DNA of 42,729 nt. It comes from Candidatus Thalassarchaeum sp. Its GTDB lineage: Archaea > Thermoplasmatota > Poseidoniia > Poseidoniales > Thalassarchaeaceae. The position numbers and the translations under genes were made by a program. The notes below the pieces were generated by a model. It made no database searches. It was given only the letters and a program-made list of their open reading frames with translations, and was not told where the DNA came from. Location of the stretch: positions 1-42,729 of the forward strand of contig JAKUOE010000002.1 in the NCBI GenBank assembly GCA_022449845.1, read 5' to 3'. Positions 8,801 through 39,799 of the stretch are shown here, piece by piece; the first letter of the stretch is position 1, and every line of letters begins with the position of its first letter.

Positions 8801-8839
8801 CGTCAGGACGCTCGGTCTAACCTATCAAACTCTTCCCCT

Positions 8840-8869: not shown

Positions 8870-8878
8870 GGAGTGGTT

Positions 8879-14575: not shown

Positions 14576-14583
14576 GGACTCAC

Positions 14584-14602: not shown

Positions 14603-14823
14603 CCGCATCCCCGCTCTCACGCTTATGATGCTGATGGAGCGCCGTTCGGACGGGACTTCAGACATTTCTGACAACAAATGGATGAATTTGGATTGAGAAA
14701 GAAATTATTTTGTTTTCAAATATTACCTTTCGGCGGTTTTTTGAAGGTGCAAAATACGGCTTCTGATTCTCTCTCCAAGCGCTTCATTCAAGGGGTGTAC
14801 AGTCGGCCGCCTCTAAGGTTGGG

Positions 14824-15624: not shown

Positions 15625-15687
15625 AAATCTCACCTCAGTATGAGGTGAAATGCGAATTGCTAAGAACAGACGGGGGTATCTCAGTCC

Positions 15688-22108: not shown

Positions 22109-25100
22109 TCATTCGTTGTCTGGAACCCACTTGTTCTGCTCCGCATCCCACTTCCAGCCGGGATATCCGGATACGGCAGGGGCAGCGGCCTCTTGAACGG
22201 CGGGCTGGGCAACCTGTGTGGCTGCAGCTTCCTGTTCCTGACGCTCCTTCGCCCATGCATAGGGATCGACTTCTTCGGCAGCGGCCTCTTCAAGATCATC
22301 CTCATATTCGTCCTCAAATTCAACGAAGAAGAAGACGAAAACGCCACCGAGAAGGGCGAGTACAATCAAACCGAGAACGGTGAGGCCAATCCACTTCAAG
22401 AGACCTGAGCCTTCATCGAGGCCTCCTTCGACAACAATCTCTGAATCTTCATTCATTGGCTGTCCGATGCTACCATATTCGAAGACAATGGTGTTGGAAC
22501 CCTTGTCGAGTCGATTTCCGGGGATCTCCAAGGTCCATGTTCCATCTTCCCCGACCACTGTACTACCGAGGCGGAGTCCAGAACCAGTCTCACCGATGAC
22601 ACTGACTGTTGGACGTCCCTTTCCACTGTAGACAAGAATGTCGGATGCACTGATTTGTCCGGGGCAGCCCGCGACAAAGGCACCATCCTCCATGATGCCG
22701 GCACATTGTGATTCAAACGAGACACCGACGACATCGAAATCAAGAGGGTCGGATGAGATGGTGCTCCCAGCACTGTCTCGAACCTGGAAGATGACATCCT
22801 GTAAGTCCCAATCTTCCATGGATCCAGAGTAAAAGGACATCGAGAGGGGGTTGTAGTTGGCCACACCATTGCTGCCGACTGTGATAACCTCGGCGTACAA
22901 ATCATCCTCAAACATATCCGGCTGATCTAGGACATAGTAGGACAGGCTGTCACCCGCATCAACATCCGAGAAGAATTCGGTGAGGTCGATGTAATAGCCA
23001 TCGCCGCACCGGTTCTGAGATGCACCCTCTTCTTCACAGAAAATGGTCACAGAGTCGGGCCAGTTGGTCGAATTGAAGGCAGGGCGAGTATTGTCCTGAT
23101 TGGGTGGGTTATCGATGATAACCTCAATCGAAGCAGCGTCACTGTACTGGAATCCGTCGAACGAACGGACTTCAACGATGTAGTGGTAATTGTGGACCAA
23201 ATTGGTCGTATCCCACGTGGTCGCCCAGCCTCCATTTGCCGCAATATCCTGGACCAACGAATGTGGACCTTCGGGCATCTCAAGGAAGCCAGCTTGTGGA
23301 TCCTTGATGACAATCTCCACCTTTGTGACGGTGCCATCTGTATCGCGGGCGACCCCACTCAGTAGGGTGTCCTCACTGGCAGTAATCGTCTGTAGGTCGA
23401 ACGGAGTCAGTAACTGGACAACAGGGATTGCATTGTCGTTGTCGACTTCAAGCGACAATACAACTGGAGTGCACTCATCGGATGAGGTGGTACAGAACGC
23501 GGAATCACTGGCCCAAACTGTGACCGTGTAGGTTCCAGAAGGCAGGTGACCGACCGTCCAATCAGCAGACCAAGCGGTACCACCTTGTTTGTCGAACAAA
23601 TTGTAGTAATTGTTCGGGCCATCGACTTCAAACCAAATTCGCTGGATATCGCTACCGAAAATGCCGCTGTAGGCATCCGAAGCACGTCCAGTAAAGTGAA
23701 CCACGCCATCATCGACGACGGTGCCAGATGCGGGGCCATCAACCCAAATGGCTGGAGGTTCAGTGTTGAGTTTGATTGTTCGAGTAACGATTTGAGATTC
23801 TGTCACACCATCATATGAACGGAACTCAAAGGTGTAGTCACCCTCGGGTTGATCGCTCATGTCGAATTCGAAATACCAATGACTGAACGGGTGATTGTTG
23901 TAAGTCACTTCGCCATCCGAATTACTGTCATCGACCGCGAGACGCATGTCGACCCAATCGCTGGTAAAGGGATCTTTGACCTGAACCTCATCAACTGCAC
24001 CCTGTTGGTCCCAGCGCGCCAATTCATCGGAAGCATAGATTCCAGCCCATTGACCATCGTGAGCCGTACCAGTGAAGTTCACCGAACGCTTGAACGAATG
24101 TCCATCATTCTGGTTCACTGTGATACTGGGTTCGAGATTTTCCAATGAGACAATCTCGGTTAGTACACCGGTTTGGCTGGTCATTGTCAGACTGTATTTC
24201 TTGTAGACCTTGCCGAACTTGTACGCGGACACGTAGTACAGAGACAATTCTCTGCTGTTAGGTCCAGCTTGACAATCGGGGTCGTCCGAATCGTAAATGA
24301 GGTCGCCATCATTGTCGATTCCATCACTGCATGAATTCTCACCTTCATCATCGGCATAGCGATCTGGGTTGATTCCACCAGGGCCACCACCCGTCATATC
24401 GAGATGGAAATCACTGGCTAGAGATACCTCTGGGGTCCAACCTTGACTGTCCGTCGTTAGACTGTACAAGTCATCACCATGACTGTCTTCAATCAAGACG
24501 GTGGAACCACCGACGCGAATACCTTCAACGATGGTTCGGAACTTGACAATCTCAGCCTTACGAATCTGTACGGCCCACTTGATTGGAGAGGTGTCGATGT
24601 AAATGTTGGACGTATCCAAACCGGTCAGGTTCGAATAGGTGAACACAGTGGAATTGTTGGTCATCTCCATGGCCAATGGGAAATTCTGAGGTGGCCAAAC
24701 ACTGCATGGTGGAATCAAGACTTGACCATCCCAATTGGTCCACTCTGCTGCTTCAACATCTGGCCATGATAGAGTGACGGGGTTGGTCGTGTTCACTTGC
24801 TGATTGGGGATAGGGATGTTCTCTGACTGGACTGTCACACTGCTCTTGGTGACATTGTAAGTCTGACCAACACCCATCCACGTATTCATGGAGAAAAAGG
24901 CGAGAGAACCATACTGTGGATCATTCGCATAATTGGTATCGTGATGCTTGATCATCGCACCGGTAGCCGTCGAATTGATGACATTGTTTCGAACATCCAA
25001 CAAGGCACCAATGGCTCGGATGCCATCACCCTCGCCACCAATCGTAATGTCATTGTTCAGGAGTGTCAGCGATGAACGGAAAGCGTGCACTGCGGGCCAA

Positions 25101-26473
25101 GGGAAGTCTCCACCCCCTGCTTTCATGCTCGTACATTCTCCACCATTGCTAGTGATGATTGAGTTTGCTACATACATTCGGTTCTCGGAAGGAGAAGGTA
25201 CAGACCAGGCATTGTCCCCGAAGTGATATTCACCAGCGATGAGGGGCTCCTTTGCAATGTCCTGAATCGATACGTTTTCGATTCGAACGTCACTTTCTCC
25301 GATTGACCAAACACCGTTCCAGCCACCGATTGGACCAATGGAACCACCGCTGATATTCACCTTGCTCTTGGAAATCTGGACACCTGAACCCTCACCGGCT
25401 CCATCGATGACGTTGTTGTTGAAATCGACCCAAGCCAAGTTGAATGCTGTGAGAGGGCTACGATCGGCAGTCGTGACCTTATTGTTGGCAACGGTCAGCT
25501 TGTATGCCACATTGTTGCCGGCAGTCTTCTTGTTGTTGACGTCGATACCGTTGCATGTGGTCGAAATCGTGGATGATGTGACGGTTCCTGCCGAATCATC
25601 CAGTCGAATCCCATAATCTCCGCTGGCGATGACGGAATTTCGGATGTCGACAAAGGATTCCTCAACCCACAGTACGTGGCGGCCGTCATCGTTCTGACCA
25701 CAGCCGTTGTCTGTACCCGTGAAAACTGCAGAGTCAATGATTAGAGGTTGAATCGAACTTCCAGCACCATAGGCTTGGATTGCGGAACCAATCAGAGATG
25801 TTGCGTCATCACCAACGGTGAACTCTCCACCGAGGATGTCCGGGCGAGCGAGGTCTAGAATCAACAGACTGGTGGTGTTGACGCCTTCAAATTTCAAGCC
25901 AACCATGGTTGGGCTGGCACCCTCTGCGACGATGGCGCCGTAGCGAACCTCTGAGATTTCAGAGACCCAGCGGGGCATTCCATAGGCATTGGTAATGGAA
26001 ACATGATTGAGTTTGGTGGCTCCAATGTCGACTGTGCTACGGAGTAGAATGCCTTCATTGCACGATGGATCGCGATTGTAGTGATTCCCGCTGAAAATCC
26101 CGTAACAACTGCCGGTTGCCGAAGCATTCGAAGGATCTTGCCAATTGAACGTAATGCGAGAACTGTTACTCGCCATTCCGTTCGCTCCACACGCGATGTC
26201 ACCAGCACATAGCCCACCCCGAACGTCGAGGTATGTTCCGTTGGGCATGGTGACGGTGGTTCCAGGTTGCACAATCAGATTTGCTCCGGTCGCCACGATG
26301 ACAGTGTCAGTCAGTGTATGCGATCCAGTCCAAACCTCTGTTCCTGAGATGGTTCCGCTCGTTGTTTCATTGGTAGCCATTGCTGTCGGCATCAATCCGA
26401 CCAGTCCAATCATGACGCTTGTCAGCATCAAGAAAGACAAAAACAGGCTCTTTTTTCGATGGGTCTCTTCCAT
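22109..26473 (-). CDS. Giant membrane-anchored surface protein (~1454 aa): right-handed beta-helix region, Ig-like domains, C-terminal TM and acidic tail
   Basis: Start chosen at the ATG at 26473 (MEETHRKKSLFLSFLMLTSVMIGLVGLMPTAMA, signal-like). It is preceded by GGAGTGAT at 26478..26485. Beta-helix-type repeats occupy aa ~90-560 (IRNSVIASGDYGIRLDDSAGTVTSSTIS, LLNNDITIGGEGDGIRAIGALLDVRNNVI). Ig-like modules follow (PPAIWVDGPASGTVVDDGVVHFTGRASD; PVVQLLTPFDLQTITASEDTLLSGVARDTDGTVTKVEIV). TM at about 22316..22402, then a 68-aa tail. Confidence 0.85.
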   Translation of the reverse strand: MEETHRKKSLFLSFLMLTSVMIGLVGLMPTAMATNETTSGTISGTEVWTGSHTLTDTVIVATGANLIVQPGTTVTMPNGTYLDVRGGLCAGDIACGANGMASNSSRITFNWQDPSNASATGSCYGIFSGNHYNRDPSCNEGILLRSTVDIGATKLNHVSITNAYGMPRWVSEISEVRYGAIVAEGASPTMVGLKFEGVNTTSLLILDLARPDILGGEFTVGDDATSLIGSAIQAYGAGSSIQPLIIDSAVFTGTDNGCGQNDDGRHVLWVEESFVDIRNSVIASGDYGIRLDDSAGTVTSSTISTTCNGIDVNNKKTAGNNVAYKLTVANNKVTTADRSPLTAFNLAWVDFNNNVIDGAGEGSGVQISKSKVNISGGSIGPIGGWNGVWSIGESDVRIENVSIQDIAKEPLIAGEYHFGDNAWSVPSPSENRMYVANSIITSNGGECTSMKAGGGDFPWPAVHAFRSSLTLLNNDITIGGEGDGIRAIGALLDVRNNVINSTATGAMIKHHDTNYANDPQYGSLAFFSMNTWMGVGQTYNVTKSSVTVQSENIPIPNQQVNTTNPVTLSWPDVEAAEWTNWDGQVLIPPCSVWPPQNFPLAMEMTNNSTVFTYSNLTGLDTSNIYIDTSPIKWAVQIRKAEIVKFRTIVEGIRVGGSTVLIEDSHGDDLYSLTTDSQGWTPEVSLASDFHLDMTGGGPGGINPDRYADDEGENSCSDGIDNDGDLIYDSDDPDCQAGPNSRELSLYYVSAYKFGKVYKKYSLTMTSQTGVLTEIVSLENLEPSITVNQNDGHSFKRSVNFTGTAHDGQWAGIYASDELARWDQQGAVDEVQVKDPFTSDWVDMRLAVDDSNSDGEVTYNNHPFSHWYFEFDMSDQPEGDYTFEFRSYDGVTESQIVTRTIKLNTEPPAIWVDGPASGTVVDDGVVHFTGRASDAYSGIFGSDIQRIWFEVDGPNNYYNLFDKQGGTAWSADWTVGHLPSGTYTVTVWASDSAFCTTSSDECTPVVLSLEVDNDNAIPVVQLLTPFDLQTITASEDTLLSGVARDTDGTVTKVEIVIKDPQAGFLEMPEGPHSLVQDIAANGGWATTWDTTNLVHNYHYIVEVRSFDGFQYSDAASIEVIIDNPPNQDNTRPAFNSTNWPDSVTIFCEEEGASQNRCGDGYYIDLTEFFSDVDAGDSLSYYVLDQPDMFEDDLYAEVITVGSNGVANYNPLSMSFYSGSMEDWDLQDVIFQVRDSAGSTISSDPLDFDVVGVSFESQCAGIMEDGAFVAGCPGQISASDILVYSGKGRPTVSVIGETGSGLRLGSTVVGEDGTWTLEIPGNRLDKGSNTIVFEYGSIGQPMNEDSEIVVEGGLDEGSGLLKWIGLTVLGLIVLALLGGVFVFFFVEFEDEYEDDLEEAAAEEVDPYAWAKERQEQEAAATQVAQPAVQEAAAPAVSGYPGWKWDAEQNKWVPDNE

Positions 26474-26477
26474 GGGT

Positions 26478-26485
26478 ATCACTCC
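26478..26485 (-). promoter_or_regulatory. Shine-Dalgarno-like GGAGTGAT, 4 nt upstream of the ATG at 26473
   Basis: The reverse complement of atcactcc matches 7 of 8 positions of the GGAGGTGA consensus complementary to the archaeal 16S rRNA 3' end. A TTATAG TATA-like element lies at 26515..26520 within the only strongly AT-rich tract nearby. Confidence 0.55.
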
Positions 26486-26606
26486 AAGTTGCAGGTGTGG
26501 GACAGTTGCAAGGGCTATAACAGCCACGACGCCGCGGCAGTCCGTTTTCGCCTCTATTAGGATCAAAAAAATACTAAAATATCATACTTGAGTATCATAT
26601 ATTTGT

Positions 26607-27866
26607 TTAAGTATCACTATTTTCTGCGATTGCATCGGCAACTGCGCGCTCCCAAGCGACTGCATCGAGCATTCCATAGCCCCATCGAGGGTGATGTTCA
26701 CCACCCTGCAGGTCATGCGGTTCGCAAGAATCAGCGAGGGCCTGTTTGACCAGCATAATCCCCGCCCGTGTCGAATTGCTGTCTGGGAGCGCGTCTCCGT
26801 GTCGCTCTAGAATCAGGGCTAGCGCGCCTGTGACGAAAACTGTGGAATCGCTGGTCCCAGTACTGGCTGAATACGGAATTGATAGACTCGGATCTGATGT
26901 TGAAATGATGTTTACCCCTGGTGCTGAGACCTCCGGTTTTTGATTGGGTTCGATTCGAATTTCCCCATTGGCGCCTTCAGTTCCAGAACCGGTGGCTGTT
27001 CGCTCCCACAAGTCTCCGTTCTTGTCCACCGCACCGACTGCAATGACGCCGTCCACGTTGGCTGGAACAGAGACGTCGGTGACCCCAGTCCCAGCTCCTC
27101 CCGAGTTGCCGGCAGCCGCAACGACGAAGACGCCGTGGTCAAGGGCATCGCGTACGGCATCGGCCGTCTGTGACCCCAAGGGGTTCTCAGGGTCTGGATC
27201 CCCGCCCAATGAAAGAGAAATGATGTCGACACCCATGTCATTCCAACACCACTCAATGGCTGCGGAAACCGTGGATTCAGATTGTGTCGTCCCTTCAGAA
27301 TTCAGTGCTGCCGCGACGACCAAACCGACGTTTGGAGCAGCGCCACGATAATTGCCATCCGCAATCAGAATCCCAGCCATCATTGTTCCATGTCGATCAG
27401 TACCCCTATCTTGGATGATATGGTCATCCCCATCGATAAAATCACGATATTGGACAAGGTTCGCATCGGCAAGATCAGGGTGTGTCATCTCGATGCCTGT
27501 GTCCACAATGCAGACCAAGATACCGTTGCCCGTCAAGCCAAGTTCATCGTGGAGTGTGTAGATGTTGGTATTTTCATACGCCCATTCAGAATTCGGTGTG
27601 AGTGCACCGGCGAACAATGAGGTAATCTGTGGATAGGTCAACAATAGTGCCGAAATGAGGCACATCGCCATGAGTATGCCCCACGGCCGTTCAATTTCTC
27701 GACGTGATGAGGTGTTGGCTGCATCACGCCATGCCGCTGCCTGCTCGGGTGTAGCTCCATACGCCTCCGGTGGATAACCCGGGGCATCAGGGTCGATGGC
27801 AGTCAGCATTCGAGGGTCCTCTGGTTCAGGGAGGAACTCGAGGTCCCGGTAGGGGTCTGGAGGCAT
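26607..27866 (-). CDS. Subtilisin-like serine protease (peptidase S8), N-terminally membrane-anchored
   Basis: Catalytic blocks in order: Asp 'LVCIVDTGIEMTHPDL' (D122), His 'DRHGTMMAGIL' (H159), oxyanion Asn 'VVAAAGNSGG' (N253), Ser 'STGTSDSTVFVTGALALI' (S339). The Pro-rich N-terminus is followed by one TM segment (PWGILMAMCLISALLLTYPQI). Confidence 0.9.
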   Translation of the reverse strand: MPPDPYRDLEFLPEPEDPRMLTAIDPDAPGYPPEAYGATPEQAAAWRDAANTSSRREIERPWGILMAMCLISALLLTYPQITSLFAGALTPNSEWAYENTNIYTLHDELGLTGNGILVCIVDTGIEMTHPDLADANLVQYRDFIDGDDHIIQDRGTDRHGTMMAGILIADGNYRGAAPNVGLVVAAALNSEGTTQSESTVSAAIEWCWNDMGVDIISLSLGGDPDPENPLGSQTADAVRDALDHGVFVVAAAGNSGGAGTGVTDVSVPANVDGVIAVGAVDKNGDLWERTATGSGTEGANGEIRIEPNQKPEVSAPGVNIISTSDPSLSIPYSASTGTSDSTVFVTGALALILERHGDALPDSNSTRAGIMLVKQALADSCEPHDLQGGEHHPRWGYGMLDAVAWERAVADAIAENSDT

Positions 27867-27972: not shown

Positions 27973-30900
27973 TCAGAAGGCTTGACCACGTCGACCGCTG
28001 AACTTCCAGAACAAGCCAATGATGCCGGCAATGATGATGGCGACAATAATCCCCAGCCAGTTATTTGCTTCAGTAGAGACTTCTGGTTGGTAGTTCATCT
28101 TCATCATCTGCTCTTCAGGAGTATTCGCTAAATCAAGACCTGTCGTATTGATTCGGAAGGTGTAATCCACAGTTCCAATTTCATCGACTGGGTCCACGTC
28201 CATTGTGTACGAAACAGTCTCAAGCATCGGGACATCCTGAGTCAATGAGCCAACAACGAGGCCGGCCTCATCAAGAATTTCGACTTTGACGTCGCGTGCG
28301 TCCACTTGTCCGGAATTCACTACACTGATGAAGAACTGATTGGTTTGACCCAGAGTACCGAATCCTGCTTGCACAAGTCCGATTGCACCAGGGTCGTCAT
28401 CTGTGAACTCCAAGTTCGGTAGTGCCGTCTTGATTGTCAATGTCAGCGTTTCTGATGTAGTGTTGTCTTCGCTCAGAATCGTGATTGTAACTGGGAATTC
28501 AACATCACCGACCCAAGCTTCTGACGAATGGATTGAGACCGAATAGGCCTGGGAGTTGCGTGGACCCACAGTAACCATACTGGCTCCAGTCACAGTCCAC
28601 AGTGGTGTGACCGCATCAGGCAAGTCAGAGATTTGGATGGTGAATGTGTCCTCACCGTTCCCTGTATTCTCAAAGAAGAACGAATAGGTATCATCAAACC
28701 CAATCTGTACACCAACTTCGGTATTATCGATTTCATCCTTGTCGGTGATTTCCACACCGTGTTCTTGCGGAACGAAGAGTTTGAGTTCATACTCATCGTG
28801 TGATCCGGTTCCTTGGTGCGTCATCTTGACCAGCATCGAATGGCCCTCATCGTAGGACTCAGCCACAGTCTTGTTGGCTGGAATCACACGGAGGCGGAGG
28901 TCAGCAGTGGTATTTTCATCGATACCCATGGTGTATGGCCGGTGGGTGTCCCAAATGTCCTCACCCGTTGTCTCATGAGTGCCATTCCAAACTTCTACAG
29001 TCCAGAATTCAGCGTCTCCACCATTCATCTCAACTGTGAGCATGTAACTGTCCGTAGGTTGATTTCCATTGTAGATGAGGTCGAGGTTAATCTCTCCAAC
29101 CGCGTACTCGAGTTCATCTCCATTGTCGACGATATTGAAGTGATCGTCATCCTCGTCCGACTGTTCAATCGACGTGTGATTCTCATCCACGGTGAAAGAG
29201 ATGGAATGATCCATGGCGACACTGAACAGAACCAGTTGTTCTGGCGATTCAACCCCTCCACCGACAACTTCAGCGCTCTTGCCGCCGTTGTATGTCATTT
29301 CCATGCCTTGTTCTGTGGTCGTGAACGTCCCACTGATGCTGTAATCTCCAGCAGGCAGTAGCAAGGACACTGCGCCATCGGCATCGACGGATTCGTTCCA
29401 ACTGTAGGTGAGTCCGCTGTCGAATACGAGGTTGTCGCCACTGTCAATCAAGGCACTGTCTCCCAGTGTGTGTTCAACACCATCATAGTCGAACCAGCGA
29501 GTGGTGACATGGAGCATGCTGGCTGTTGAAAGCATGGCATCGGCCTCGCCTCCTTCAGCAACTGCCGCTTCTACCAATGAAATGGCTGCGAATTGTCCTT
29601 CATCACCATCATAGGTCGCGTACAGAATCCAGTTACCTGGGTCAACGTCTGCCGACCAAGTCCCATTCCAAGTTCCGTTATCCAACAACTTGGTCGGTGT
29701 CTGTGAACTGAAGGAAAGGCCGGATTCCGGAATGAGAATCAAATTGATATCATCGGCGATATCCTCCCATTCTGAAGGCAGAACGTGTGTGATCTGACCG
29801 CCTGCTGTAACAATCCCTGCTGTTAATTCAATATCAGACGAATTGGCGGTGTAACCCACCTCAAGTGTGGTCGAACCATTGCTGAATCCTTCCTTACTCG
29901 CGAATACGTCGTATGTATCATTCACTGGGACGAAGATTCGCCAAGTACCCAGAACGTCGGTTGTCAGGTTGAATGGGCCGAAGGTTGTGCTGTTGACAAC
30001 AACATTGGCGTCAACAATACCCTCAGCATAACTCCATGCATCATCTTCGTTGACGTCACGGAATAGGTTGCCTGCAATCTCAACCCATTTGTTGAGTGAA
30101 AGATTGGTGTCTGCATTCGCTGAGCCTTCAGCCAAATTCAGTGTCACATTGTCTAGTATCCAACGCATATTGTTGTCCGTGCGATTGAGACTCAAGGTCC
30201 AATTTCCGGGCATGAGAGATTCATCAATCACACCATTTTCATCACTCGGACCGAGGCTGAATTCACCCAGGCCATCTTCACTGACTGCGTCGACTTGGAA
30301 ACCGCTGAGCAACTCCCCACTCCCAGCTTCAATCAATGTGATGTTGAAGTGGGCCGCTTCGACGGTATACCAATCAATGGTTGAACTCGGTGTTGCCGAA
30401 TCAACCGTCAGAGTGGTGCGGAATGTCTGCAATGGGTCGTCGTTGGTTTCGTCTCCATCGTCATCGATGAAATCGAGGATATGGGCGATCCATTCTCCTT
30501 CTGGTAGATATTCGACGATGGTACCGTTTGCATCTGTGTCGTGGGTGAATGATTGACCCCCATCGGCCGCGTTGAAGTACACGGTCCAGTTGGCCATCGG
30601 GCCAGCAGACTGATTGCGCAATGTGATAGCAGTACGCCATTCAGGTAGGAAGCCAAGTTCTACATCCTGTGTCTCAGCACCGATTGCGATATCGATGAGT
30701 CCGCTGGAGTTCGACAAGAGGGTGTTGAACTCAGTCATATTCTCATCACGCGCATCCTTGGCATCAGTTTCGAAAACCCATCTGCCGACCTTCAGCTCGA
30801 GTACAATCGTTCCATTGTCCCAGCGAGCATCGTCGGCTGAGATGTTGATATTGCCCGAATCATCCAATGCACTGTAGGGTATCAATCGGAAATCGATGGG

Positions 30901-33900
30901 GACTGCAGTACCATTCGACTGGTTGCCGTCCATTGAATGGTCGATAAACGGCATGAGGATTGTATCAACGTAATCGGGTTCCGCAATTAGAACCAGAGTT
31001 GCATTGTCACCCTGTGGAGAGTATGTGTATGGTGTGACGTTGAGAGCGTCGTTATTGATGCTCAACGTCCAGTTCCGAGTCTGATTTTCGCCCTCTGGTT
31101 CCAATACATACGATGTGAATCGACCCTGGGCGATATCGACCGGCCATTGCCAAGTGACGCCAGTGGAATGATCGTATGATTCCATCATGAATGGGAAATC
31201 CTCGAATCCGGGGAGCGCGTGAGTATACGGAGTCCCAACTTCATACAGGAAGATGCTGCCCGAAGCACCGACACTGGCCCTAGGATACAGGGTGTGCTGA
31301 GAACCTGTGCTGGGCACGACGAAATGCTCACCTGCGAGTAGGTTTCCAATCACCACGTGAACCGTGAGGTTGACCTCTGCACCGACGGGAATCTGGAATC
31401 CAAACGTTCCATTCTCGTCCGTCATCGTGGATTCTGTGATACTGCCGCCCCACTGAATCGTGACCATCTGATTGTTGTATCCTTCAGGGTCCTGATCGGG
31501 TTTGTCTGTATTGTCGTACATGACGGTTCCATTGACCCATGCGGATGCGACATACTGTAGCACCATTCCGGTCATGTTCTCTTGGAGATCAATTTCCTCG
31601 TAGAGGATGTATTCATCGTCCAGCATACTCTCGACAACCCAAGTATCACGAGGTAACTCGATGTTATACGAGCCGTTGCCATTGTCACGAGCATCAATCG
31701 TGATGGGTGTGAACTGGTTTGAGAACGTCAGGTTCTGACCTTCGACTGGCTGATCCTGATGGTCCAGCAAGAGGAACTCAATGTCGTACATAGGTGGTAT
31801 CTTATCGATATCAGCAGGTGTGACATTCCCAGCGTTATCTGGAGTTACAGTGATTGTTTCAGAACGATATTCATCGAACCCGTCTTGATCACCGTCCATG
31901 ATGACGACATATTCGCCCTCCAATACCGGACCGATACCAAATGTACCATTCTCATCGGTTTCAAACCAACAAGGAGACCAAGCGACCTCACCACAGGGTT
32001 CAGTGACATTGGCATACATGTCTTCGAAATCAACAAGTTCCAATCGTCCGGTGATGATATCCCCCGGACCTTCGTCCATCGAAAGCGTTCTCGGTGTACC
32101 CTGAATCCATGTCCCTGGCAACGACAGTGCGATGTTGTTCGCTTCAGGGCTCTCTCGCGAAAGAGGGACCTCAAGCGGCATCGGGAGAACGGATTCCTCA
32201 CCGTTTTCAAACAGTACAGCAACGTGATAGGTTCCCGGAATTGCATCAACGAGGTGGAAAGAACCGGGTTTGACCATGTCGCCACTGAAATGTCCAGTGC
32301 CTTGGAATGTACCGGTTCCATTCATTGTTCCATACGATGACAGATTGGTGTCTGTTGCATCGACCACGAATGTACCGGCTCCGATGATGGTTTCTCGATA
32401 CATCGGTGTCGTGAAGAACGATGTTCCATTCGAAGTGAATCGACCATTGACACCGAACACTTCACCATCGACGAGGAAGGTGTCGGTGACATTCGCATCT
32501 TCAAGACAGTATGTCGCTGCATCAGGCATCGAACCGTTCAAACATTCCTGTGCGGATGAATCGACGATTGTACCGACGAATGTTCCTCGGCCAATGATGT
32601 CGCCGATTCCATCGTAGGAATGGTTGTGGAGGATGCTGCGCGTGTAATTTCCAGTGAAATCAGTCGCAGTCATCACACCTGATTCTGAGATGACTGAGCC
32701 TGGGCCAGTGAAGGTGACTTCACCGGTGGCTCCTGGTCCAAACTGACGCTCACCTTCGACATCACCGTCAGATGTGGTAATGAAGTAAGCATCCTGTTGG
32801 GAGTCATCCCAAATATTCGAGATTCGAAGATCCATGTTCGCGAGAGGTTCGCCACCGAAATCGGCATCGCCTTGCCAAGCAATCGTTCCGGTCGCACCGG
32901 ATGCATCAACCTGAATTTCCATGTTCAACACGGCTTCACCATTCGAATGACCTTGGTCTCCTGTGACGTTGACCGTTGCCTCACCCAACCAAGTTGAGCC
33001 AGAAACGTTGCCCAAAATTCCAGTGATTGGATTGATTGTTCGATCCTCATTATCGTCGGTCACCAAATCGATGGCCCAGTTCTGAGATTCCTGAGATTCT
33101 GCAGTGACCAGACCGTCGCGAGCCGCGGTCAAATCGGATTCACCCATGAATGCAGAGACGCGGATGCGCCCACTGGGTACACGGAGGCTGAAGTGACCTT
33201 CATCATCGGCCTGTGCAGTTCCGATTGGAATCCAATAGGTTCGAGCATCGGTATCTGAAGGGTCCTCTCCGCTGAATGCGTCTCTTTCAATCAGTAATTT
33301 TGCATTGGGGACTGCCCCAATCTCACCGAGAATAACATCGCCCTCTAGCGTAGCACCCGAGTAGTACTTGAGCACCTTGACACCTGTGTTCGCTGTCGAA
33401 ATTGCCTGTGGGTTGTCTTCGTTTGCGTCATACCAATTTGCAAGCACGAAGTGATTCATCATCGCACCCGGCAATGGATAGGCGTAAGTCAGTGGTGTGT
33501 CGGGTGTACCATATCCACTGAAATGTTGCTTGGGTTGACCGATTCTACTGAGAGTATCGAGTCCCAGTTGAGGACTGCCATAACCGATGTAGGTACGAGC
33601 AATCATCGTGTCAAAGAATTCTGGCTGCTGATCAACACGGACGTCAACAAGTTGGATGACATCTTCACCACTCCCACCACTGGTTTGGACAGCGAGAATG
33701 TCCGCCAGATAGGCTTCCTCGAACTCGGCGCTAGTCATCTCTTGTTCGGGTCGATCACCACGCTGAGTGATGTAGACTGACTGGATGTAATCGTCGGGAT
33801 CCAGACCACTGAGTGTGGTTGGTGCGTAAAAGATACCCGTGGGGTTGCCGTAGTGCATTCCACTCTCGGAATACTGGTAACCACCGATTGGGTACAATCG

Positions 33901-36900
33901 ATTGTCCACAGCAAAGTACCGGATGTCGTTGTTGCGCATCACCGTCTCACCAGGACCACCATCATAGGTGGCGACTTCGTACTCGATTGAAGTCAAATCG
34001 TGATACAAATCGACCAACTCATCCAAACTGAAGACATGGGTCAGTAGGTCGCGAGCGATGGCGTAGCGAGCATTCTGGCGGTGCAGAGATGTCGATACGT
34101 CGTTGAAATCATCGTACAGGTCACTGGTGTACCAATAATCGCCGATGATGTAATGGGTTGATTCGCATGAAAAGGCGTCCGAAGCGTCGAAGTTCTCATC
34201 ACCGGGCGAACGTCCATTGTCATCGATGACAGATTCACCGCCGCTGGGACAGGCCTCCAACCAATCGACCTTACCGTTCTGATCAAACTCATAGATGGCC
34301 GTACCGATGTCTGGATATTCGCCAATCAACTCACGGTCTTCGTAAAGGCGGTAAAGCGTCGATTCTGAACGTGTACCATCATCATCCATAACGTGGCCCT
34401 CAGCGATGATGACATCATCCGCAGAACCAATCACAGTGAAGGCGCGATCGCGTACACCCTGACTTTCAGACATCGAATTCACGGAGACCCATTCATCCCA
34501 TGTCGCCCCAGTTTGGGTTGCAGAATTGAAGTGGGATTGCATCACTTGTGCGAAGGCTCGAGTGAAATGGTCGTCATCTTCATCCCCTTCATCATCATTG
34601 AATTCCTGACGCATGTCACCCTCTGCGAGCGTGACGATGAACAGGGCAATCGTATCTTCTTCACCGGCGGCAAGCAACATGTTTCCAGCTGCGGGGATTC
34701 CCGACTGGAAGTTGTCTGCAACGGTTGGATGCTGGCCCTGAGCCAAGGCTTGGAATCCATAATCCCACCATGAGACGAAGGCGGGTCGTTCCGAGAACGA
34801 CACGTCCGTATCTTGACTTTCCAGCCAATCATAGGCTTGATTCCAAGAACGGCCATTGAAACCGGGGCCGAAGGTTCCCATGTACCAACATTCACCTTGA
34901 CAGGTGGCCTGTTCTTCCCTCGTCTGATTGACTCCGTAATCAGAGTAGGGGGAACTGTCGAGAATCGACCAACCAAAGAGTTCGGCGCGCAAGGCATCCG
35001 GCATCAAATCGTGAATGACGTCATCGATTTGCTTCTCAGCAACCTCGCCACGAGGGATGCCAGAGTCGAGGCCATACACAGCGTGTTGGCTGAACAATAG
35101 GAGCAAGACGAGGCCAATCGCAGGCACACCGGGGTGCTTTCGACCTGCACGTAGCGTCGAACGGAAGCGCGCTTGAGAACCTGTGACACCTAGGCGTCTC
35201 CAGGTCTTCGCATATTCCTTGACACCGCTGAAACGCCAAAGGCCAACGATTGCCGCAGAACCCATGATGGCCATCACAGGAGTTGCGTTGAACATGAATC
35301 GTCCCGCGGACCAAGCCATGTACGAGGCCAACAGAATCCACACAGACAAGACCATGTGAGTCTGGTTACGTGTTCGGAAACCACGCCACATCGCAATGAA
35401 ACCCATACCCAGTGCGAACATGAACACGAGAGGTCCGAAATTCGCGAACAGTTGTCCCCGGCTCGGGGCCTGTGCTTCAGCAATCGTACCGAATACCTTG
35501 TTCTTTGAGAAATAGAACCCACCCGTAGTGAGGACGTCCCAACCATTCGAAATGTCCAGTACCTGAAGGATGTACAATGAACCCAACAGCAGAGTCGTGA
35601 TTGCAGAACCCATGATTATGACCATCAACCAAGGCTTGTCACGGAATGCAGTGACAATCCATCCATTGATGACGGTTAAGCCGATGATGTAGAACAACGG
35701 CTGGAAACCGCTTGCGTCCCAAATCAGGTTCAACTGCATATTGCCGTAGAACGGCAACGGAAGCAAGAAGGTGACCGACATCATCACGATGATGGCTGAT
35801 GTCAGAGGCATGCTGTCTCTTCGACGGACTAGGTTGATGGCTGTCTGTAGGAAGAAGGCCACCCAAATGATCGCCAGACCATAGACGAATCCTTTCCATC
35901 CCAAAGCGACAGTCGCAAACGAGACACCAGCAAGGATTGCTTGTGCCATCGCAGCAGGATGTTGTTTGAATGAAGCCTGAATACCCTTGATCATGTGCAA
36001 TGGGTTCCAATCGGAATCCTCGAGCAATTTGTCACTGCCGATTGTATCAACAGCACAGAGCCAGAAATAGAATCCGAGAGACATGAACAGAATGACGAAG
36101 GCATCGTGGTCAGCCAGAGCGAATGTGCTGTGACTGACGTGACCAGGCATGAGTGCCATGAGCCAAGCACCAATTGCACCAGCTCCGGTCCCGAAGAATC
36201 TGCGGCATGTTGCAGCAATCGGCAGAACAGTCAATGCGCCGTAAACGGCAGGTAGACCTGCAATCGACCACCAGGCCGCATCGTGGACATCGCCTTCTAG
36301 GAAGGGATTCAATGCAGCCCCACCGAGCGCCAATGTCCAACTGAACAACGGCGGTCGCGGGTTGATGGAGCCGACCGGGTAGGCACGGTCCATGTCGATG
36401 ACGAAGTGGCTATTCTGAGCGAGGATGTAATCGATGGCGCGCTTCATGTACCAAGGGTCAGAACCCCCGGTCATGTCCCACTCGCCCGTTCCAGCGGCGT
36501 TCATAGCAGGGATAACGTTCCACATCACACGAACGGCTAGAGCCGTCAGAAGAGCACCGAATACTGTGATTGAATACCAATGCTGACCCCACCAGAGGCG
36601 AGCCTTGCCTTGGCCACGTCGCTCAGGACCCTTCAACAGACGGCCCGAGAAGCCGAAGTACAGGATTCCGGCGTTGAGCCAGAAGAATATGGCGAACCAT
36701 GACAATCCACCAAGACTGCCATTCAAGAATCCAATCTGATCGATGCCGAATAGACCTGCGTCCTGCCAACTTCCGATACTGTAGAGAATCCAGTTGAGTC
36801 CCATGAAGAGACCCAAAGTGCGCCACTGCTCAGCCCAACAGAATGCGACGAACATGGCGATTAGACCCGTAAACAGGGCCCAGAAGAAACCGACGTTCTC

Positions 36901-37650
36901 TGCCAGGAAGATTGAATCCGGGTTGTCAAGCGTGGTCAGATGCCACAGACTGAAGGCGTGTGCAGCAATCCATGCGACCAAACCAGCATACAGAGGAATG
37001 TGTTCCTTTTCAACAATCTCTGGGAGATCCTTGAACCATGAACTAGTGCCTCCGTCCTGCAAACGACCGCGGAGGGCTAGAGCAAGTACAACACTGGATA
37101 GAATCGAAATCATCCACCAAGTGAAGAACAGATAGCCGGTTACGGCACGATCGACATCCAGAATGTTGTAGTATCCCTGGGAGCCGAATTCTCCCTCGAC
37201 ACCCCATGTGTGACCGGCTGCGGCCACTTGGATTGCATAGATGAATCCAGCAACGACACCGACCACAATCAGTTCTTCTTCGTGACGACGTGAGCGGTCG
37301 AATAGATGAACGCCAATCGCCATCATGACGAAACCGAGGCCCAGCAGAGCGGCGCCATCGTAGTAATGCAATAGGCCGACGGCACCGATAATCACCGCAA
37401 AACCGAGGGAACCGAGAGAGGGACGGGTTCCAACGGGTTCGAAGATGATGCGAGGTGCCTTGCCGAGTAGACCACCAGCCAACAGTACGGTGGTGATCAT
37501 CAGCAGTGTGTTCCAATTGCTGTCATCATAGTCGACGGTGTTCCAGGTGACTGCAACCATCATGGCCAGCATGATAGCGATTGTCACCGGGATGGCGAGT
37601 AGACCGAACAATGGTGCTCGCGTCGACGCAATTCCGTTTTCGTTTTCCAT
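27973..37650 (-). CDS. aglB: Giant (~3225 aa) dolichyl-phosphooligosaccharide-protein glycotransferase (AglB/STT3 family) with polytopic N-terminal extension, very long C-terminal ectodomain and terminal TM anchor
   Basis: Uninterrupted 9.7-kb ORF. Start chosen at the ATG at 37650 (MENENGIASTRAPLFGLL), preceded by GAGAGGGG. STT3/AglB motifs occur in canonical order: EL1 'GGSDPWYMKR' (DPWY = 36448..36459), 'ALADHD', EL5 'GTIAEAQAP' (TIxE), 'WWDYG' (34756..34770; tgg tgg gat tat gg verified), 'IRYFAVDNRLYPIGG', and the AglB-terminal beta-sandwich 'VKVLKYYSGATLEGDV'. Final TM LGIIVAIIIAGIIGLFW at about 27976..28065. Confidence 0.9.
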   Translation of the reverse strand: MENENGIASTRAPLFGLLAIPVTIAIMLAMMVAVTWNTVDYDDSNWNTLLMITTVLLAGGLLGKAPRIIFEPVGTRPSLGSLGFAVIIGAVGLLHYYDGAALLGLGFVMMAIGVHLFDRSRRHEEELIVVGVVAGFIYAIQVAAAGHTWGVEGEFGSQGYYNILDVDRAVTGYLFFTWWMISILSSVVLALALRGRLQDGGTSSWFKDLPEIVEKEHIPLYAGLVAWIAAHAFSLWHLTTLDNPDSIFLAENVGFFWALFTGLIAMFVAFCWAEQWRTLGLFMGLNWILYSIGSWQDAGLFGIDQIGFLNGSLGGLSWFAIFFWLNAGILYFGFSGRLLKGPERRGQGKARLWWGQHWYSITVFGALLTALAVRVMWNVIPAMNAAGTGEWDMTGGSDPWYMKRAIDYILAQNSHFVIDMDRAYPVGSINPRPPLFSWTLALGGAALNPFLEGDVHDAAWWSIAGLPAVYGALTVLPIAATCRRFFGTGAGAIGAWLMALMPGHVSHSTFALADHDAFVILFMSLGFYFWLCAVDTIGSDKLLEDSDWNPLHMIKGIQASFKQHPAAMAQAILAGVSFATVALGWKGFVYGLAIIWVAFFLQTAINLVRRRDSMPLTSAIIVMMSVTFLLPLPFYGNMQLNLIWDASGFQPLFYIIGLTVINGWIVTAFRDKPWLMVIIMGSAITTLLLGSLYILQVLDISNGWDVLTTGGFYFSKNKVFGTIAEAQAPSRGQLFANFGPLVFMFALGMGFIAMWRGFRTRNQTHMVLSVWILLASYMAWSAGRFMFNATPVMAIMGSAAIVGLWRFSGVKEYAKTWRRLGVTGSQARFRSTLRAGRKHPGVPAIGLVLLLLFSQHAVYGLDSGIPRGEVAEKQIDDVIHDLMPDALRAELFGWSILDSSPYSDYGVNQTREEQATCQGECWYMGTFGPGFNGRSWNQAYDWLESQDTDVSFSERPAFVSWWDYGFQALAQGQHPTVADNFQSGIPAAGNMLLAAGEEDTIALFIVTLAEGDMRQEFNDDEGDEDDDHFTRAFAQVMQSHFNSATQTGATWDEWVSVNSMSESQGVRDRAFTVIGSADDVIIAEGHVMDDDGTRSESTLYRLYEDRELIGEYPDIGTAIYEFDQNGKVDWLEACPSGGESVIDDNGRSPGDENFDASDAFSCESTHYIIGDYWYTSDLYDDFNDVSTSLHRQNARYAIARDLLTHVFSLDELVDLYHDLTSIEYEVATYDGGPGETVMRNNDIRYFAVDNRLYPIGGYQYSESGMHYGNPTGIFYAPTTLSGLDPDDYIQSVYITQRGDRPEQEMTSAEFEEAYLADILAVQTSGGSGEDVIQLVDVRVDQQPEFFDTMIARTYIGYGSPQLGLDTLSRIGQPKQHFSGYGTPDTPLTYAYPLPGAMMNHFVLANWYDANEDNPQAISTANTGVKVLKYYSGATLEGDVILGEIGAVPNAKLLIERDAFSGEDPSDTDARTYWIPIGTAQADDEGHFSLRVPSGRIRVSAFMGESDLTAARDGLVTAESQESQNWAIDLVTDDNEDRTINPITGILGNVSGSTWLGEATVNVTGDQGHSNGEAVLNMEIQVDASGATGTIAWQGDADFGGEPLANMDLRISNIWDDSQQDAYFITTSDGDVEGERQFGPGATGEVTFTGPGSVISESGVMTATDFTGNYTRSILHNHSYDGIGDIIGRGTFVGTIVDSSAQECLNGSMPDAATYCLEDANVTDTFLVDGEVFGVNGRFTSNGTSFFTTPMYRETIIGAGTFVVDATDTNLSSYGTMNGTGTFQGTGHFSGDMVKPGSFHLVDAIPGTYHVAVLFENGEESVLPMPLEVPLSRESPEANNIALSLPGTWIQGTPRTLSMDEGPGDIITGRLELVDFEDMYANVTEPCGEVAWSPCWFETDENGTFGIGPVLEGEYVVIMDGDQDGFDEYRSETITVTPDNAGNVTPADIDKIPPMYDIEFLLLDHQDQPVEGQNLTFSNQFTPITIDARDNGNGSYNIELPRDTWVVESMLDDEYILYEEIDLQENMTGMVLQYVASAWVNGTVMYDNTDKPDQDPEGYNNQMVTIQWGGSITESTMTDENGTFGFQIPVGAEVNLTVHVVIGNLLAGEHFVVPSTGSQHTLYPRASVGASGSIFLYEVGTPYTHALPGFEDFPFMMESYDHSTGVTWQWPVDIAQGRFTSYVLEPEGENQTRNWTLSINNDALNVTPYTYSPQGDNATLVLIAEPDYVDTILMPFIDHSMDGNQSNGTAVPIDFRLIPYSALDDSGNINISADDARWDNGTIVLELKVGRWVFETDAKDARDENMTEFNTLLSNSSGLIDIAIGAETQDVELGFLPEWRTAITLRNQSAGPMANWTVYFNAADGGQSFTHDTDANGTIVEYLPEGEWIAHILDFIDDDGDETNDDPLQTFRTTLTVDSATPSSTIDWYTVEAAHFNITLIEAGSGELLSGFQVDAVSEDGLGEFSLGPSDENGVIDESLMPGNWTLSLNRTDNNMRWILDNVTLNLAEGSANADTNLSLNKWVEIAGNLFRDVNEDDAWSYAEGIVDANVVVNSTTFGPFNLTTDVLGTWRIFVPVNDTYDVFASKEGFSNGSTTLEVGYTANSSDIELTAGIVTAGGQITHVLPSEWEDIADDINLILIPESGLSFSSQTPTKLLDNGTWNGTWSADVDPGNWILYATYDGDEGQFAAISLVEAAVAEGGEADAMLSTASMLHVTTRWFDYDGVEHTLGDSALIDSGDNLVFDSGLTYSWNESVDADGAVSLLLPAGDYSISGTFTTTEQGMEMTYNGGKSAEVVGGGVESPEQLVLFSVAMDHSISFTVDENHTSIEQSDEDDDHFNIVDNGDELEYAVGEINLDLIYNGNQPTDSYMLTVEMNGGDAEFWTVEVWNGTHETTGEDIWDTHRPYTMGIDENTTADLRLRVIPANKTVAESYDEGHSMLVKMTHQGTGSHDEYELKLFVPQEHGVEITDKDEIDNTEVGVQIGFDDTYSFFFENTGNGEDTFTIQISDLPDAVTPLWTVTGASMVTVGPRNSQAYSVSIHSSEAWVGDVEFPVTITILSEDNTTSETLTLTIKTALPNLEFTDDDPGAIGLVQAGFGTLGQTNQFFISVVNSGQVDARDVKVEILDEAGLVVGSLTQDVPMLETVSYTMDVDPVDEIGTVDYTFRINTTGLDLANTPEEQMMKMNYQPEVSTEANNWLGIIVAIIIAGIIGLFWKFSGRRGQAF

Positions 37651-37734
37651 TTTGATTTCCCCTCTCTGGGTTACTAACAGCACATACGCTACGCCATCAG
37701 CGACGCCGCGACTTGAGGTCTCGTTATAACCTCT

Positions 37735-37761
37735 CCTCACGCGCTCGCGCGAAGGGTGAGG
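37735..37761 (-). terminator. Imperfect GC-rich hairpin 27 nt downstream of the purD stop
   Basis: Plus strand cctca-cgcg-ctcg-cgcg-aaggg-tgagg has an outer 5-bp and an inner 4-bp stem with an internal loop. It lies in the 137-nt purD-aglB spacer. A TTATAA element (37724..37729) follows on the sense strand and could serve aglB. Confidence 0.3.
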
Positions 37762-37787
37762 CTCAGTACAACGAATAGACCTCTCGT

Positions 37788-39050
37788 CTAAAGTGCTCTA
37801 TGACCGATATCACGGCGGAAATGTGCGCCTTCAAGTTCCACTTCTGACAACTTCTGATAGGCTAAATCGCGGGCTTCGGCAAGAGATGCGGCAATCCCAG
37901 TCGAAGCTAGAACCCGGCCCCCAGTCGAGATTAGATTCCCATCGGATGAACCCGTTCCAGCATGATGGATGAAGGCACGTCCTGCCGAATCAATGTAATC
38001 GGAGAGATTGCCTGAGATTGAACGGCCCTTGACGGGTGGGCCTGGATAGCCTTCAGCAGCGAGGACCACAGTCATCGCATGTTCATCAGAAAATGTCGGC
38101 ATCGATTCAGACAGGCGTCCCTCGGCGACAGCGAGCAGGAGGTCGCAGAGATCGCTGGCGATGAGTGGGACCGTGACCTGAGTCTCAGGGTCGCCAAATC
38201 GGACATTGTATTCGACGACGGAGGGGGCACCCTCATCATCAATCATCAGACCGACGTATAGGCAGCCTCGATACGGCGTTGACTGGGAGGAGAGGTGAGC
38301 GTGCATCGGCTCTACAATCTCTGAAATGGCTCTGGCCCGAACCGCCTCCGTAGCGACCGGCGCGGGCGCATACGCACCCATTCCACCAGTATTCAGGCCA
38401 ACATCTCCCTCACCCACACGCTTGTGATCTTGACTACACGGTAGGGCGACATATCCGGATTCATCCATCATGACGAGCATACTGGCTTCCTCACCAGCGA
38501 GGAATTCCTCCATCAACACCATGCCATCAGACTCGATGGATGTGCGGATGAAATCTAGGGCTTCATCTCGATCCTCGGTCACGACCACGCCCTTACCACC
38601 GGCCAGCACATCACGCTTGACAACCCAAGGCGCACCCCACAGGTCGACTGCGGCATCCAAATCGGTTTCAGGTGTAAGGTGTTGAACACCAGCGGTTGGA
38701 ATATTGAGATCGAGCATGACCTGCTTGGCGAAATCCTTGCGTCCTTCTAGCATCGCACCTGCTGCATGAGGGCCAAAACTTGGAATCCCTACAGCGCGCA
38801 GTGAATCGGATAGCCCATCGACCAAAGGCGCTTCTGGACCGACGACGAAGAGGTCGGCGCCAATCGATTTGGCCAAGGCGACTTGAGCATCGATATCGCT
38901 CGCACTGACATCGTGATTGGTAGCGATTCCAGCCGTCCCAGCATTGCCGGGAGCAACGTGGACGGTGGAGACTGAGGGACTATCCAGCAGGCCGATTGTC
39001 AGAGCATGTTCACGGCCACCACCGCCGACAACCAGAACGGTTCGCCCCAT
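37788..39050 (-). CDS. purD: Phosphoribosylamine--glycine ligase (GAR synthetase)
   Basis: 420 aa. 'VLVVGGGGREHAL' at the N-terminus, ATP-grasp blocks (VVKRDVLAGGKGVVV, EEFLAGEEAS) and 'VEYNVRFGDPETQ'. The start is preceded by GGTAATCC. Confidence 0.95.
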   Translation of the reverse strand: MGRTVLVVGGGGREHALTIGLLDSPSVSTVHVAPGNAGTAGIATNHDVSASDIDAQVALAKSIGADLFVVGPEAPLVDGLSDSLRAVGIPSFGPHAAGAMLEGRKDFAKQVMLDLNIPTAGVQHLTPETDLDAAVDLWGAPWVVKRDVLAGGKGVVVTEDRDEALDFIRTSIESDGMVLMEEFLAGEEASMLVMMDESGYVALPCSQDHKRVGEGDVGLNTGGMGAYAPAPVATEAVRARAISEIVEPMHAHLSSQSTPYRGCLYVGLMIDDEGAPSVVEYNVRFGDPETQVTVPLIASDLCDLLLAVAEGRLSESMPTFSDEHAMTVVLAAEGYPGPPVKGRSISGNLSDYIDSAGRAFIHHAGTGSSDGNLISTGGRVLASTGIAASLAEARDLAYQKLSEVELEGAHFRRDIGHRAL

Positions 39051-39088
39051 GGATTACCGCGGTGCGTTTCAGCACATGAACAGTCCCA

Positions 39089-39745: not shown

Positions 39746-39799
39746 AACACGAGACAGGTGGGGTCGGCTTAGAATTGTGCGCACGATTGCGCATCCTTC

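Follow-up and report, generated by a model that had tools for sequence, protein, structure and literature searches.

In a 42,729-nucleotide stretch of Candidatus Thalassarchaeum sp. DNA (assembly GCA_022449845.1, contig JAKUOE010000002.1; hereafter the window), we could identify a single gene whose 3225-amino-acid (aa) product embeds an STT3/AglB oligosaccharyltransferase (OST) core between an N-terminal module of ten predicted transmembrane (TM) helices and a large C-terminal ectodomain. AglB/STT3 is the signature enzyme of N-glycosylation. The protein, referred to as giant STT3 in this text, is likely an active AglB-type OST chain that carries the ten-TM module as a lineage-specific addition, together with a beta-sandwich stalk that is heavily glycosylated, fixed in the membrane at both ends and part of the cell surface. 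This architecture is universal in the Poseidoniales (Marine Group II, MGII). According to the MGII genome papers, few planktonic archaea in surface waters are as abundant as these uncultured organisms.

An STT3/AglB core within one open reading frame

The open reading frame (ORF) of giant STT3 is unbroken from 27973 to 37740 on the minus strand and has 3255 aa when counted from the first GTG. The ATG at 37650 opens the sequence MENENGIAST...; read from there to the stop codon at 27973–27975, the product has 3225 aa and is the same in length and sequence as the database protein P0001. Nearly all sequences of the family alignment share its M1. An earlier note on this DNA, made from the sequence alone, had described an uninterrupted ORF at 27973–37650 without giving its strand, and this description holds. 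No other ORF of the window is as long as giant STT3 (the next have 1898, 1838 and 1485 aa), which, with the Pfam STT3 match described below and 120 homologues listed, lies far beyond what chance would produce. The motif strings named in the note are all present in the order given there (3225-aa numbering): DPWY at 398–401, ADHD at 513–516, TIAE at 722–725, WWDYG at 961–965, YFAVDN at 1245–1250 and VKVLKYYSGATLEG at 1424–1437.

The Pfam STT3 model (PF02516) matches aa 398–797 (E=2.4e-15, 57.4 bits against a cut-off of 24.5). Among the curated subfamily models archaeo_STT3 (TIGR04154) scores best, with an alignment to aa 367–1000 (E=3.4e-51, 174.6 bits) that takes model positions 3–575 of 831 and leaves the C-terminal third of the model unmatched. 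The best sequence match in the PDB is A. fulgidus AglB-L (AfAglB-L, 3WAJ). Its residues 4–443 align with aa 350–801 of giant STT3, and the alignment pairs GGNDPWY with GGSDPWY and WWDYG with WWDYG. An AlphaFold2 (AF2) model of aa 1–975, built from a 22-row alignment (mean predicted local distance difference test score, pLDDT, of 71.9; predicted template modelling score of 0.74), has core helices running from residue 349 to 862. All 17 significant Foldseek matches of this model in the PDB were AglB, STT3 or PglB, led by 3WAK, 7E9S and 5GMY and followed by human STT3A/B, yeast Stt3 and PglB; other GT-C enzymes came after them. Identity to the AfAglB-type structures was about 17–19% across the aligned core. 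The STT3 call of the earlier note is thus supported both by the profile models (PF02516, TIGR04154) and by the Foldseek matches of the predicted core.

The residues expected at the active site do not vary. D398 is invariant in alignments of 27, 62 and 22 sequences, and the DHD at 514–516 and the WWDYG motif are invariant in those of 27 and 62; at identities of 37–80%, the residues without exchange are D398, D514-H515-D516, T722/I723/E725, R784 and WWDYG. The catalytic Asp of external loop 1 (EL1) is D47 in AfAglB and yeast Stt3, and D56 in PglB (PMC7226087). We regard D398 as the D47 equivalent because GGSDPWY aligns with GGNDPWY of AfAglB. The DHD shares an aligned block with the DHH of AfAglB, three columns downstream of it, and the WWDYG region matches the structures 3VU0 and 3VGP of the AglB-S C-terminal domain. 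The stretch T722-I723-A724-E725 is the TIXE/SVSE motif of EL5, as defined from AglB and PglB structures. In PglB and Stt3 a conserved Arg (R375 and R404, respectively) binds the lipid carrier at its pyrophosphate or phosphate; R784 (in AGRF) pairs in the alignment with the 'nRF' Arg of AfAglB and is a candidate for this function. By profile models, PDB match, structure prediction with Foldseek and invariant residues, the core is a genuine STT3/AglB oligosaccharyltransferase. Identity to the window protein is about 0.5–0.76 in most of the core and 0.28–0.57 in the extensions, with a core insertion at aa 1051–1200 that is less similar (about 0.33–0.40). Invariant residues in the best-conserved part of the chain are the signature that an active STT3-type transferase would be expected to leave.

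WWDYG is followed in the external domain by about 230 inserted, variable residues (about 1010–1240) and two conserved blocks, RYFAVDNRLYP (1244–1254) and FFDTMIARTYIGYG (1345–1358). The domain finishes in a beta-sandwich starting at VKVLKYYSGATLEG, according to a second AF2 model on the ectodomain side, in which model residues 567–606 are aa 1507–1546 (the alignments for the two models had 22 and 24 rows). Among the Foldseek matches listed, which are filled by tandem beta-sandwich proteins, none links aa 961–1505 structurally to the CC, IS or P1 domains of AglB. The pocket for the +2 Ser/Thr is marked by a DK (DxxKxxxM/I), DM (DxxMx4-14K) or MI (MxxIxxxI/V/W) motif (PMC5131992, PMC7226087). 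In giant STT3 the two conserved blocks are candidates for the pocket element, in a region where AF2 confidence is low; the invariant FFDTMIARTYIGYG (window 33577–33618, minus strand) might be a non-canonical substitute for it.

Stalk, N-terminal module and family

The earlier note had placed the catalytic core between an extra polytopic region and an ectodomain of ~1700 aa with its own terminal TM anchor. This arrangement is confirmed: the ectodomain extends over ~1690 aa (about aa 1506–3198) and the anchor lies at 3199–3217. At the other end a polytopic region exists as claimed; its length had been put at ~390 aa, and it comes to 349 aa because residue 4 of AfAglB-L aligns with residue 350.

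In the second AF2 model, a helical linker (aa 1507–1546) joins the last beta-sandwich of the core to the stalk, which is all-beta from about aa 1553. Pfam finds CarboxypepD_reg (PF13620) in several stretches along with Ig- and CARDB-like matches. Among the best 50 of 107 Foldseek matches to the stalk model (E<=0.001) are surface proteins built of tandem domains, such as Gram-positive pilins and adhesins (Cna B repeats, SdrD), the B. anthracis TIE protein and Sulfolobus SlaB. At the level of single domains there is a weak match (E=0.0014) to NOMO2, a translocon-associated rod of like repeat type. By BLAST, the stalk has no internal sequence repeats and no paralogue among the window's other giant ORFs. 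Since the C-terminal domain of STT3 is external and the stalk ends in a TM helix, the chain is anchored at both ends.

The stalk is rich in N-X-S/T sequons. We counted 49 in aa 1561–3190, whereas 2000 shuffles gave a mean of 16.0 +/- 3.5 and a maximum of 28; the reversed motif, used as a control, occurs 17 times. The enrichment extends to the family: in the 47 of 120 relatives covered by this test, stalks had a mean of 44.6 sequons against 16.3 expected (ratio 1.9–3.8), and the catalytic ectodomain was sequon-poor, with 1.7 observed against 3.8 expected. Eleven sequon columns are retained in at least 80% of the sequences, conserved sequons of the chain being those at N1548, N1561, N1705, N1777, N2243 and N2246, and stalk Asn residues are better conserved within sequons (0.50) than elsewhere (0.30; Mann-Whitney p=1.7e-4). 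Other large surface proteins of the window lie near expectation (15, 17 and 6 sequons observed, 13.9, 14.9 and 4.9 expected), and in the 1898-aa protein sequons are about twice as frequent as expected (30 observed, 15.4 expected). Because its sequons are so strongly and conservedly enriched, the stalk is most likely heavily N-glycosylated and probably serves as a dense N-glycosylation substrate; the enrichment also lends indirect support to a transfer of glycan to the Asn of N-X-S/T. The earlier note had suggested that the fusion couples glycan transfer to a specific envelope structure or substrate set, which is an inference. Our comparisons add that the ectodomain does not behave like a variable adhesin: it forms a stalk that is collinear, conserved in length and dense in sequons.

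Two further features of the stalk were seen. Within aa 1703–1960 (window 31771–32544, minus strand) the Cys residues of two pairs, C1703/C1715 and C1886/C1894, never vary, and neither does the motif D1919-x-D1921-x-D1923-G-x-x-E1927, which looks like a Ca-binding loop. Both suggest a structured, metal-stabilised stalk. At the extreme C-terminus, the family has an invariant Phe after A or P (...QAF or ...APF); a 330-aa ORF at the window edge (41720–42712, minus strand) ends in ...MPPAF. The two ends could share a C-terminal signal, or the likeness could be a coincidence.

At the N-terminus, ten AF2 helices precede the canonical TM1, from 13–34 to 311–334, with pLDDT mostly at 70–94. Lys and Arg residues are absent from all five loops predicted to lie outside and number 1–5 in those predicted inside, a pattern that fits an N-in topology delivering TM1 of STT3 in its normal orientation. 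A profile of the module, run against 1.84 billion representative proteins, matched 63 only, all of them giants of 3146–3228 aa or short fragments. There was no Pfam match, no relation by hhalign either to the STT3 TM core or of one half of the module to the other (probability <1%), and no significant Foldseek match beyond the STT3 core. The module is thus restricted to the giant-STT3 lineage. Polar and charged residues are conserved at its helix ends (E124, E125, D165, R168, R194, E274, N286).

The fusion is not peculiar to this contig. Among the 120 best database homologues, which stem from ENA, JGI, NCBI, TARA and Logan assemblies, 117 measure 2944–3298 aa and three 2744–2755 aa (one of these is named 'partial'). 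They cover 86–100% of the query at 36–100% identity; the one exception has a best local alignment over 50% of it. When one genome per GTDB species was scanned, 593 stretches proved to encode relatives; our statements on lineage refer to the best 80. Wherever a lineage is named, these belong to the Poseidoniales, from both families (Thalassarchaeaceae/MGIIb and Poseidoniaceae/MGIIa), with one exception dealt with below. The architecture is also carried by the single-cell genome AG-404-A19, by the long-read metagenome-assembled genome (MAG) LRMED-021 and by a 1.68-Mb contig. An ORF could be reconstructed at 61 loci and is complete at 41, and 40 of the 41 complete ORFs have 3124–3272 aa. The family alignment is collinear with few gaps, and full-length homologues of 3124–3298 aa and 35–100% identity are spread over the order. 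The highest identities across the N-terminal 975 residues (82–89%) are to Poseidoniales/Thalassarchaeaceae MAGs, which places the window in a Thalassarchaeaceae-like genome. The concern about chimerism or a hidden frameshift raised in the earlier note is answered by this conservation in dozens of independent assemblies. The same survey brings its caveat on novelty into play, as the >3000-aa architecture is common in the lineage and has been annotated automatically.

Two records stand apart from the rest. The exception among the 80 is a single-cell assembly labelled 'Deltaproteobacteria bacterium AH-558-G13' (JAOMAZ010000025.1, match 8456–15697; locus L068) with a giant STT3 of the Poseidoniales type at 39% identity, probably a contamination or a mislabelled record. 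The ORF of UBA126 (DAMG01000079.1, from 10001; locus L039) ends after 2749 aa, unlike the other complete copies; a frameshift or a fault in the assembly may be the cause, or the stalk may truly be truncated.

Proposed organization of the enzyme and alternative readings

Giant STT3 has much in common with known AglBs. AfAglB-L (3WAJ, 3WAK, 5GMY, 7E9S) and the AglBs of methanogens, Haloferax and Sulfolobus share the 13-TM GT-C core and the WWDYG domain with it, as well as the EL1 Asp, a D-x-H/D motif, TIXE and, by alignment, the candidate Arg. The characterised AglBs compared are single-domain-pair enzymes of 754–1054 aa (PMC5131992); AfAglB-L has 875 aa and giant STT3, at 3225, is about three times as large as usual. 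Unlike these enzymes, giant STT3 has ten TM helices ahead of the core, ~230 inserted residues after WWDYG, the ~1690-aa stalk and a C-terminal TM helix. TIGR04154 is an oligosaccharyl transferase family tied to the archaeosortase A system; giant STT3 itself ends in a plain TM helix and basic tail, with no PGF-type tripeptide. The stalk has its fold type and beads-on-a-string arrangement in common with CnaB/SdrD proteins, Gram-positive pilins, the TIE protein and SlaB, but differs from known tandem beta-sandwich stalks in being continuous with an enzyme, doubly anchored, and conserved in domain order and length across an entire order, not modular and variable. Archaeal S-layer glycoproteins are acidic and sequon-rich, as is the stalk; for the stalk, the comparison extends to exported location and composition.

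Based on these features, we propose that giant STT3 works as one polypeptide of about 350 kDa (before glycans) with about 24 TM helices. The 13-TM core and the WWDYG domain (aa 350 to about 1505) would transfer a lipid-linked glycan to the Asn of N-X-S/T outside the cytoplasmic membrane, with the N-terminal ten-TM bundle fused to it as a lineage-specific module. The tandem beta-sandwich stalk, of about 15 domains, would return to the membrane through the C-terminal TM helix, so that a protein anchored at both ends extends from the cell surface as a long loop. N-glycosylation of the stalk, most likely heavy, could plausibly be the work of the catalytic domain in the same chain or in adjacent copies, and the enzyme itself would be a glycoprotein component of the archaeal cell envelope, possibly with a scaffold role.

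Several points weigh against this proposal. The TIGR04154 score is well under the curated 450-bit cut-off, and giant STT3 is not filed in that family. A regex search of the 600 aa past WWDYG in the window protein found no canonical DK, DM or MI motif (among 120 relatives, a loose DM pattern occurs in 33 and MI in 2), so that the +2 Ser/Thr pocket is unconfirmed from sequence; in this respect, too, the protein differs from known AglBs. The earlier note's statement that every diagnostic motif is present therefore went too far: the catalytic motifs are there, but YFAVDN and VKVLKYYSGATLEG are blocks conserved within this family that do not count among the established STT3 motifs, and one that does, DK/DM/MI, has no canonical match. 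AF2 confidence is low near the active-site loops and in the region 1240–1290. The same genomes may also encode a second AglB of conventional length, and the adjoining subtilase may leave room for post-translational cleavage. Finally, the support for activity, for an intact 3225-aa product and for glycosylation is computational.

The lack of a canonical pocket motif and the low TIGR04154 score could be taken to mean that the core is a pseudo-enzyme, an STT3-derived membrane anchor devoid of transferase activity that merely holds a surface stalk. We consider this very unlikely, since no metal-binding or catalytic residue varies down to 37% identity, and the same is true of WWDYG and the candidate pyrophosphate-binding Arg; conservation along the protein is highest in the core, and STT3 is a near-universal core function of MGII. 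Even less credit can be given to the idea that two or three adjacent genes were joined by misassembly or a frameshift, for which only the unusual length speaks: the same unbroken architecture is found in independent ENA, JGI, NCBI and TARA assemblies, in a single-cell genome, in a long-read MAG and in the 1.68-Mb contig, and the uniform length of 40 of the 41 complete GTDB-representative ORFs refutes it. A polyprotein deserves closer attention. Cleavage in the linker around aa 1505–1555, for example by the S8 subtilase encoded next door, would yield an AglB of conventional size and a C-terminally anchored surface glycoprotein of ~1700 aa. The protease gene lies directly downstream on the same strand in 50/50 testable loci and its catalytic domain is outside, the helical linker parts the last core beta-sandwich from the stalk, and the stalk with its C-terminal TM helix resembles other type-I surface proteins of the window. 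However, no cleavage motif was identified in the chain; the linker is strongly conserved, with an invariant sequon N1548-V-S, and is not a variable spacer; adjacency alone does not prove a substrate relationship; and no complete ORF shows a fission of the gene, although about 600 species should include such a case if a separate protein were the end product. We regard cleavage as improbable.

Another possibility is that the ten-TM module and the stalk are accessory modules that do in cis what non-catalytic subunits (ribophorins, OST48, Ost3/6, DAD1) do in eukaryotic OST, with roles in nascent-substrate capture, docking to the Sec translocon or recruitment of the lipid-linked glycan instead of being envelope material. 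Eukaryotic OST (STT3, ribophorin I/II, OST48/Wbp1, Ost3/6, DAD1, Ost4/5) has a similar layout, here realised in one chain, with lumen-side beta-sandwiches that end in one TM helix and extra TM helices around STT3 (PMC7226087), although this is an analogy only. The tightly conserved length and order of the stalk domains, as for a machine part rather than an adhesin, the polar and charged residues conserved where helices of the ten-TM module end, and the weak NOMO2 match would all suit such a function. But neither the PDB profile matches nor the best 50 stalk matches contain an OST accessory subunit, and the extensions show no sequence or fold homology to such subunits among the PDB profile and Foldseek matches listed (the PDB includes yeast and human OST). 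The N-terminal module has no significant structural match either. The likeness is one of analogy, and we think this reading is doubtful, if somewhat less so than cleavage. Neither of the two excludes the proposal of an active, surface-contributing OST chain; both are compatible with it. Unlikely as well, but the least so of these variants, is a single-chain 'holo-OST' that would glycosylate the ~45–50 sequons of its own stalk (in cis or on neighbours), supply a main building block of the coat, and use the ten-TM module and C-terminal TM helix to organise enzyme, donor and possibly the translocon, in functional analogy to the multi-subunit eukaryotic OST. If true, this would be a previously undescribed coupling of glycan transfer to envelope construction in archaea that are abundant in the surface ocean.

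The architecture appears to be undescribed, even though the gene already bears a label. Existing automatic names are 'STT3 domain-containing protein' and 'dolichyl-phosphooligosaccharide-protein glycotransferase', and 'oligosaccharyltransferase (aglB)' is among the genes with higher transcripts when genus O1 was active (Damashek 2021). In the Tully 2019 supplement, the STT3 KEGG Orthology entry is present in 0.95 of MGIIa and 0.96 of MGIIb genomes and is divided among 15 gene clusters. STT3 does not come up in the Rinke 2019 supplements. In the OST and MGII literature searched, we found no description of the size or architecture of the MGII STT3, no work joining AglB with Marine Group II, and nothing on the MGII cell envelope. 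Giant STT3 offers a concrete candidate for a major envelope glycoprotein of these organisms. As a natural OST fused to extra modules it bears on the question of why eukaryotic OSTs gained subunits, and its N-terminal module adds a ten-TM domain family with no homologue elsewhere among the 1.84 billion representatives searched. It is also a warning for annotation, in that 'STT3' in the MGII lineage does not stand for a conventional AglB, a problem that arises partly because the gene fragments across short contigs, as in the 15 gene clusters of Tully 2019.

Neighbouring genes

The order of purD, giant STT3, S8 subtilase and 1485-aa surface protein is fixed. purD lies upstream of giant STT3 in 57/57 testable loci. 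Downstream, at a distance of 106 bp, the subtilase with its N-terminal signal anchor is the same-strand neighbour in 50/50 testable Poseidoniales loci. The coordinates of these genes and of the parts of giant STT3 are collected in the table.

Table. Window coordinates of giant STT3, its domains and motifs, and its downstream neighbours
Feature	Position	Strand	Evidence
Giant STT3/AglB coding sequence	27973..37650	minus	ORF list, translation, 100% identity to 3225-aa P0001
N-terminal extension, aa 1-349, 10 predicted TM helices, N-in	36604..37650	minus	AF2, Lys+Arg pattern, profile search
STT3 GT-C TM core, aa 350-870, canonical TM1-TM13	35041..36603	minus	PF02516, AfAglB-L alignment, Foldseek
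EL1 catalytic motif GGSDPWY, aa 395-401, D398	36448..36468	minus	Aligns with GGNDPWY of AfAglB
Second metal-binding motif D514-H515-D516	36103..36111	minus	Invariant; AfAglB DHH block
EL5 TIXE motif T722-I723-A724-E725	35476..35487	minus	T722, I723, E725 invariant
WWDYG motif, aa 961-965	34756..34770	minus	Invariant; matches 3VU0, 3VGP
External catalytic/peripheral region, aa 871-1505	33136..35040	minus	Conservation profile, AF2, weak PF22627 and PF13620 matches
C-terminal ectodomain stalk, aa 1506-3198	28057..33135	minus	Pfam, AF2, Foldseek, sequon statistics
C-terminal TM anchor, aa 3199-3217 (LGIIVAIIIAGIIGLFWKF)	28000..28056	minus	Hydropathy 2.45
Short basic cytoplasmic tail SGRRGQAF	27976..27999	minus	Terminal F3225 invariant
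Membrane-anchored S8 subtilase, 419 aa, TM 58-76	26607..27866	minus	PF00082 E=5e-40
Big_7 surface protein, about 1450-1485 aa, signal peptide, C-terminal TM	22109..26566	minus	Same strand in 41/41 testable loci

The 1485-aa Big_7 surface protein also has an acidic-disulfide-repeat character. Next to it, at 19489–22026 (minus strand), lies an 845-aa STAND AAA plus TPR protein with relatives in 50 loci. Three consecutive ORFs of 344, 767 and 157 aa follow at 15688–19492 on the plus strand. Those of 344 and 767 aa have short charged N-termini and then a hydrophobic helix, by which they resemble archaeal proteins with class-III signal peptides or pilin-like proteins; the 344-aa ORF also has a DUF7289 match. 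Among the related loci, 26 contain relatives of the 767-aa and 157-aa ORFs, and none was found for the 344-aa ORF. The 1898-aa protein (8879–14575, minus strand) is secreted and very acidic (18% D+E), contains bacterial TSP3 repeats, and has no C-terminal TM helix; its sequon enrichment is unlike its 1838-aa and 1485-aa neighbours. The AT skew reaches 0.12–0.17 within window positions 34001–40000, over purD, CarS and the first (5') third of giant STT3, and stays within about +/-0.07 elsewhere.

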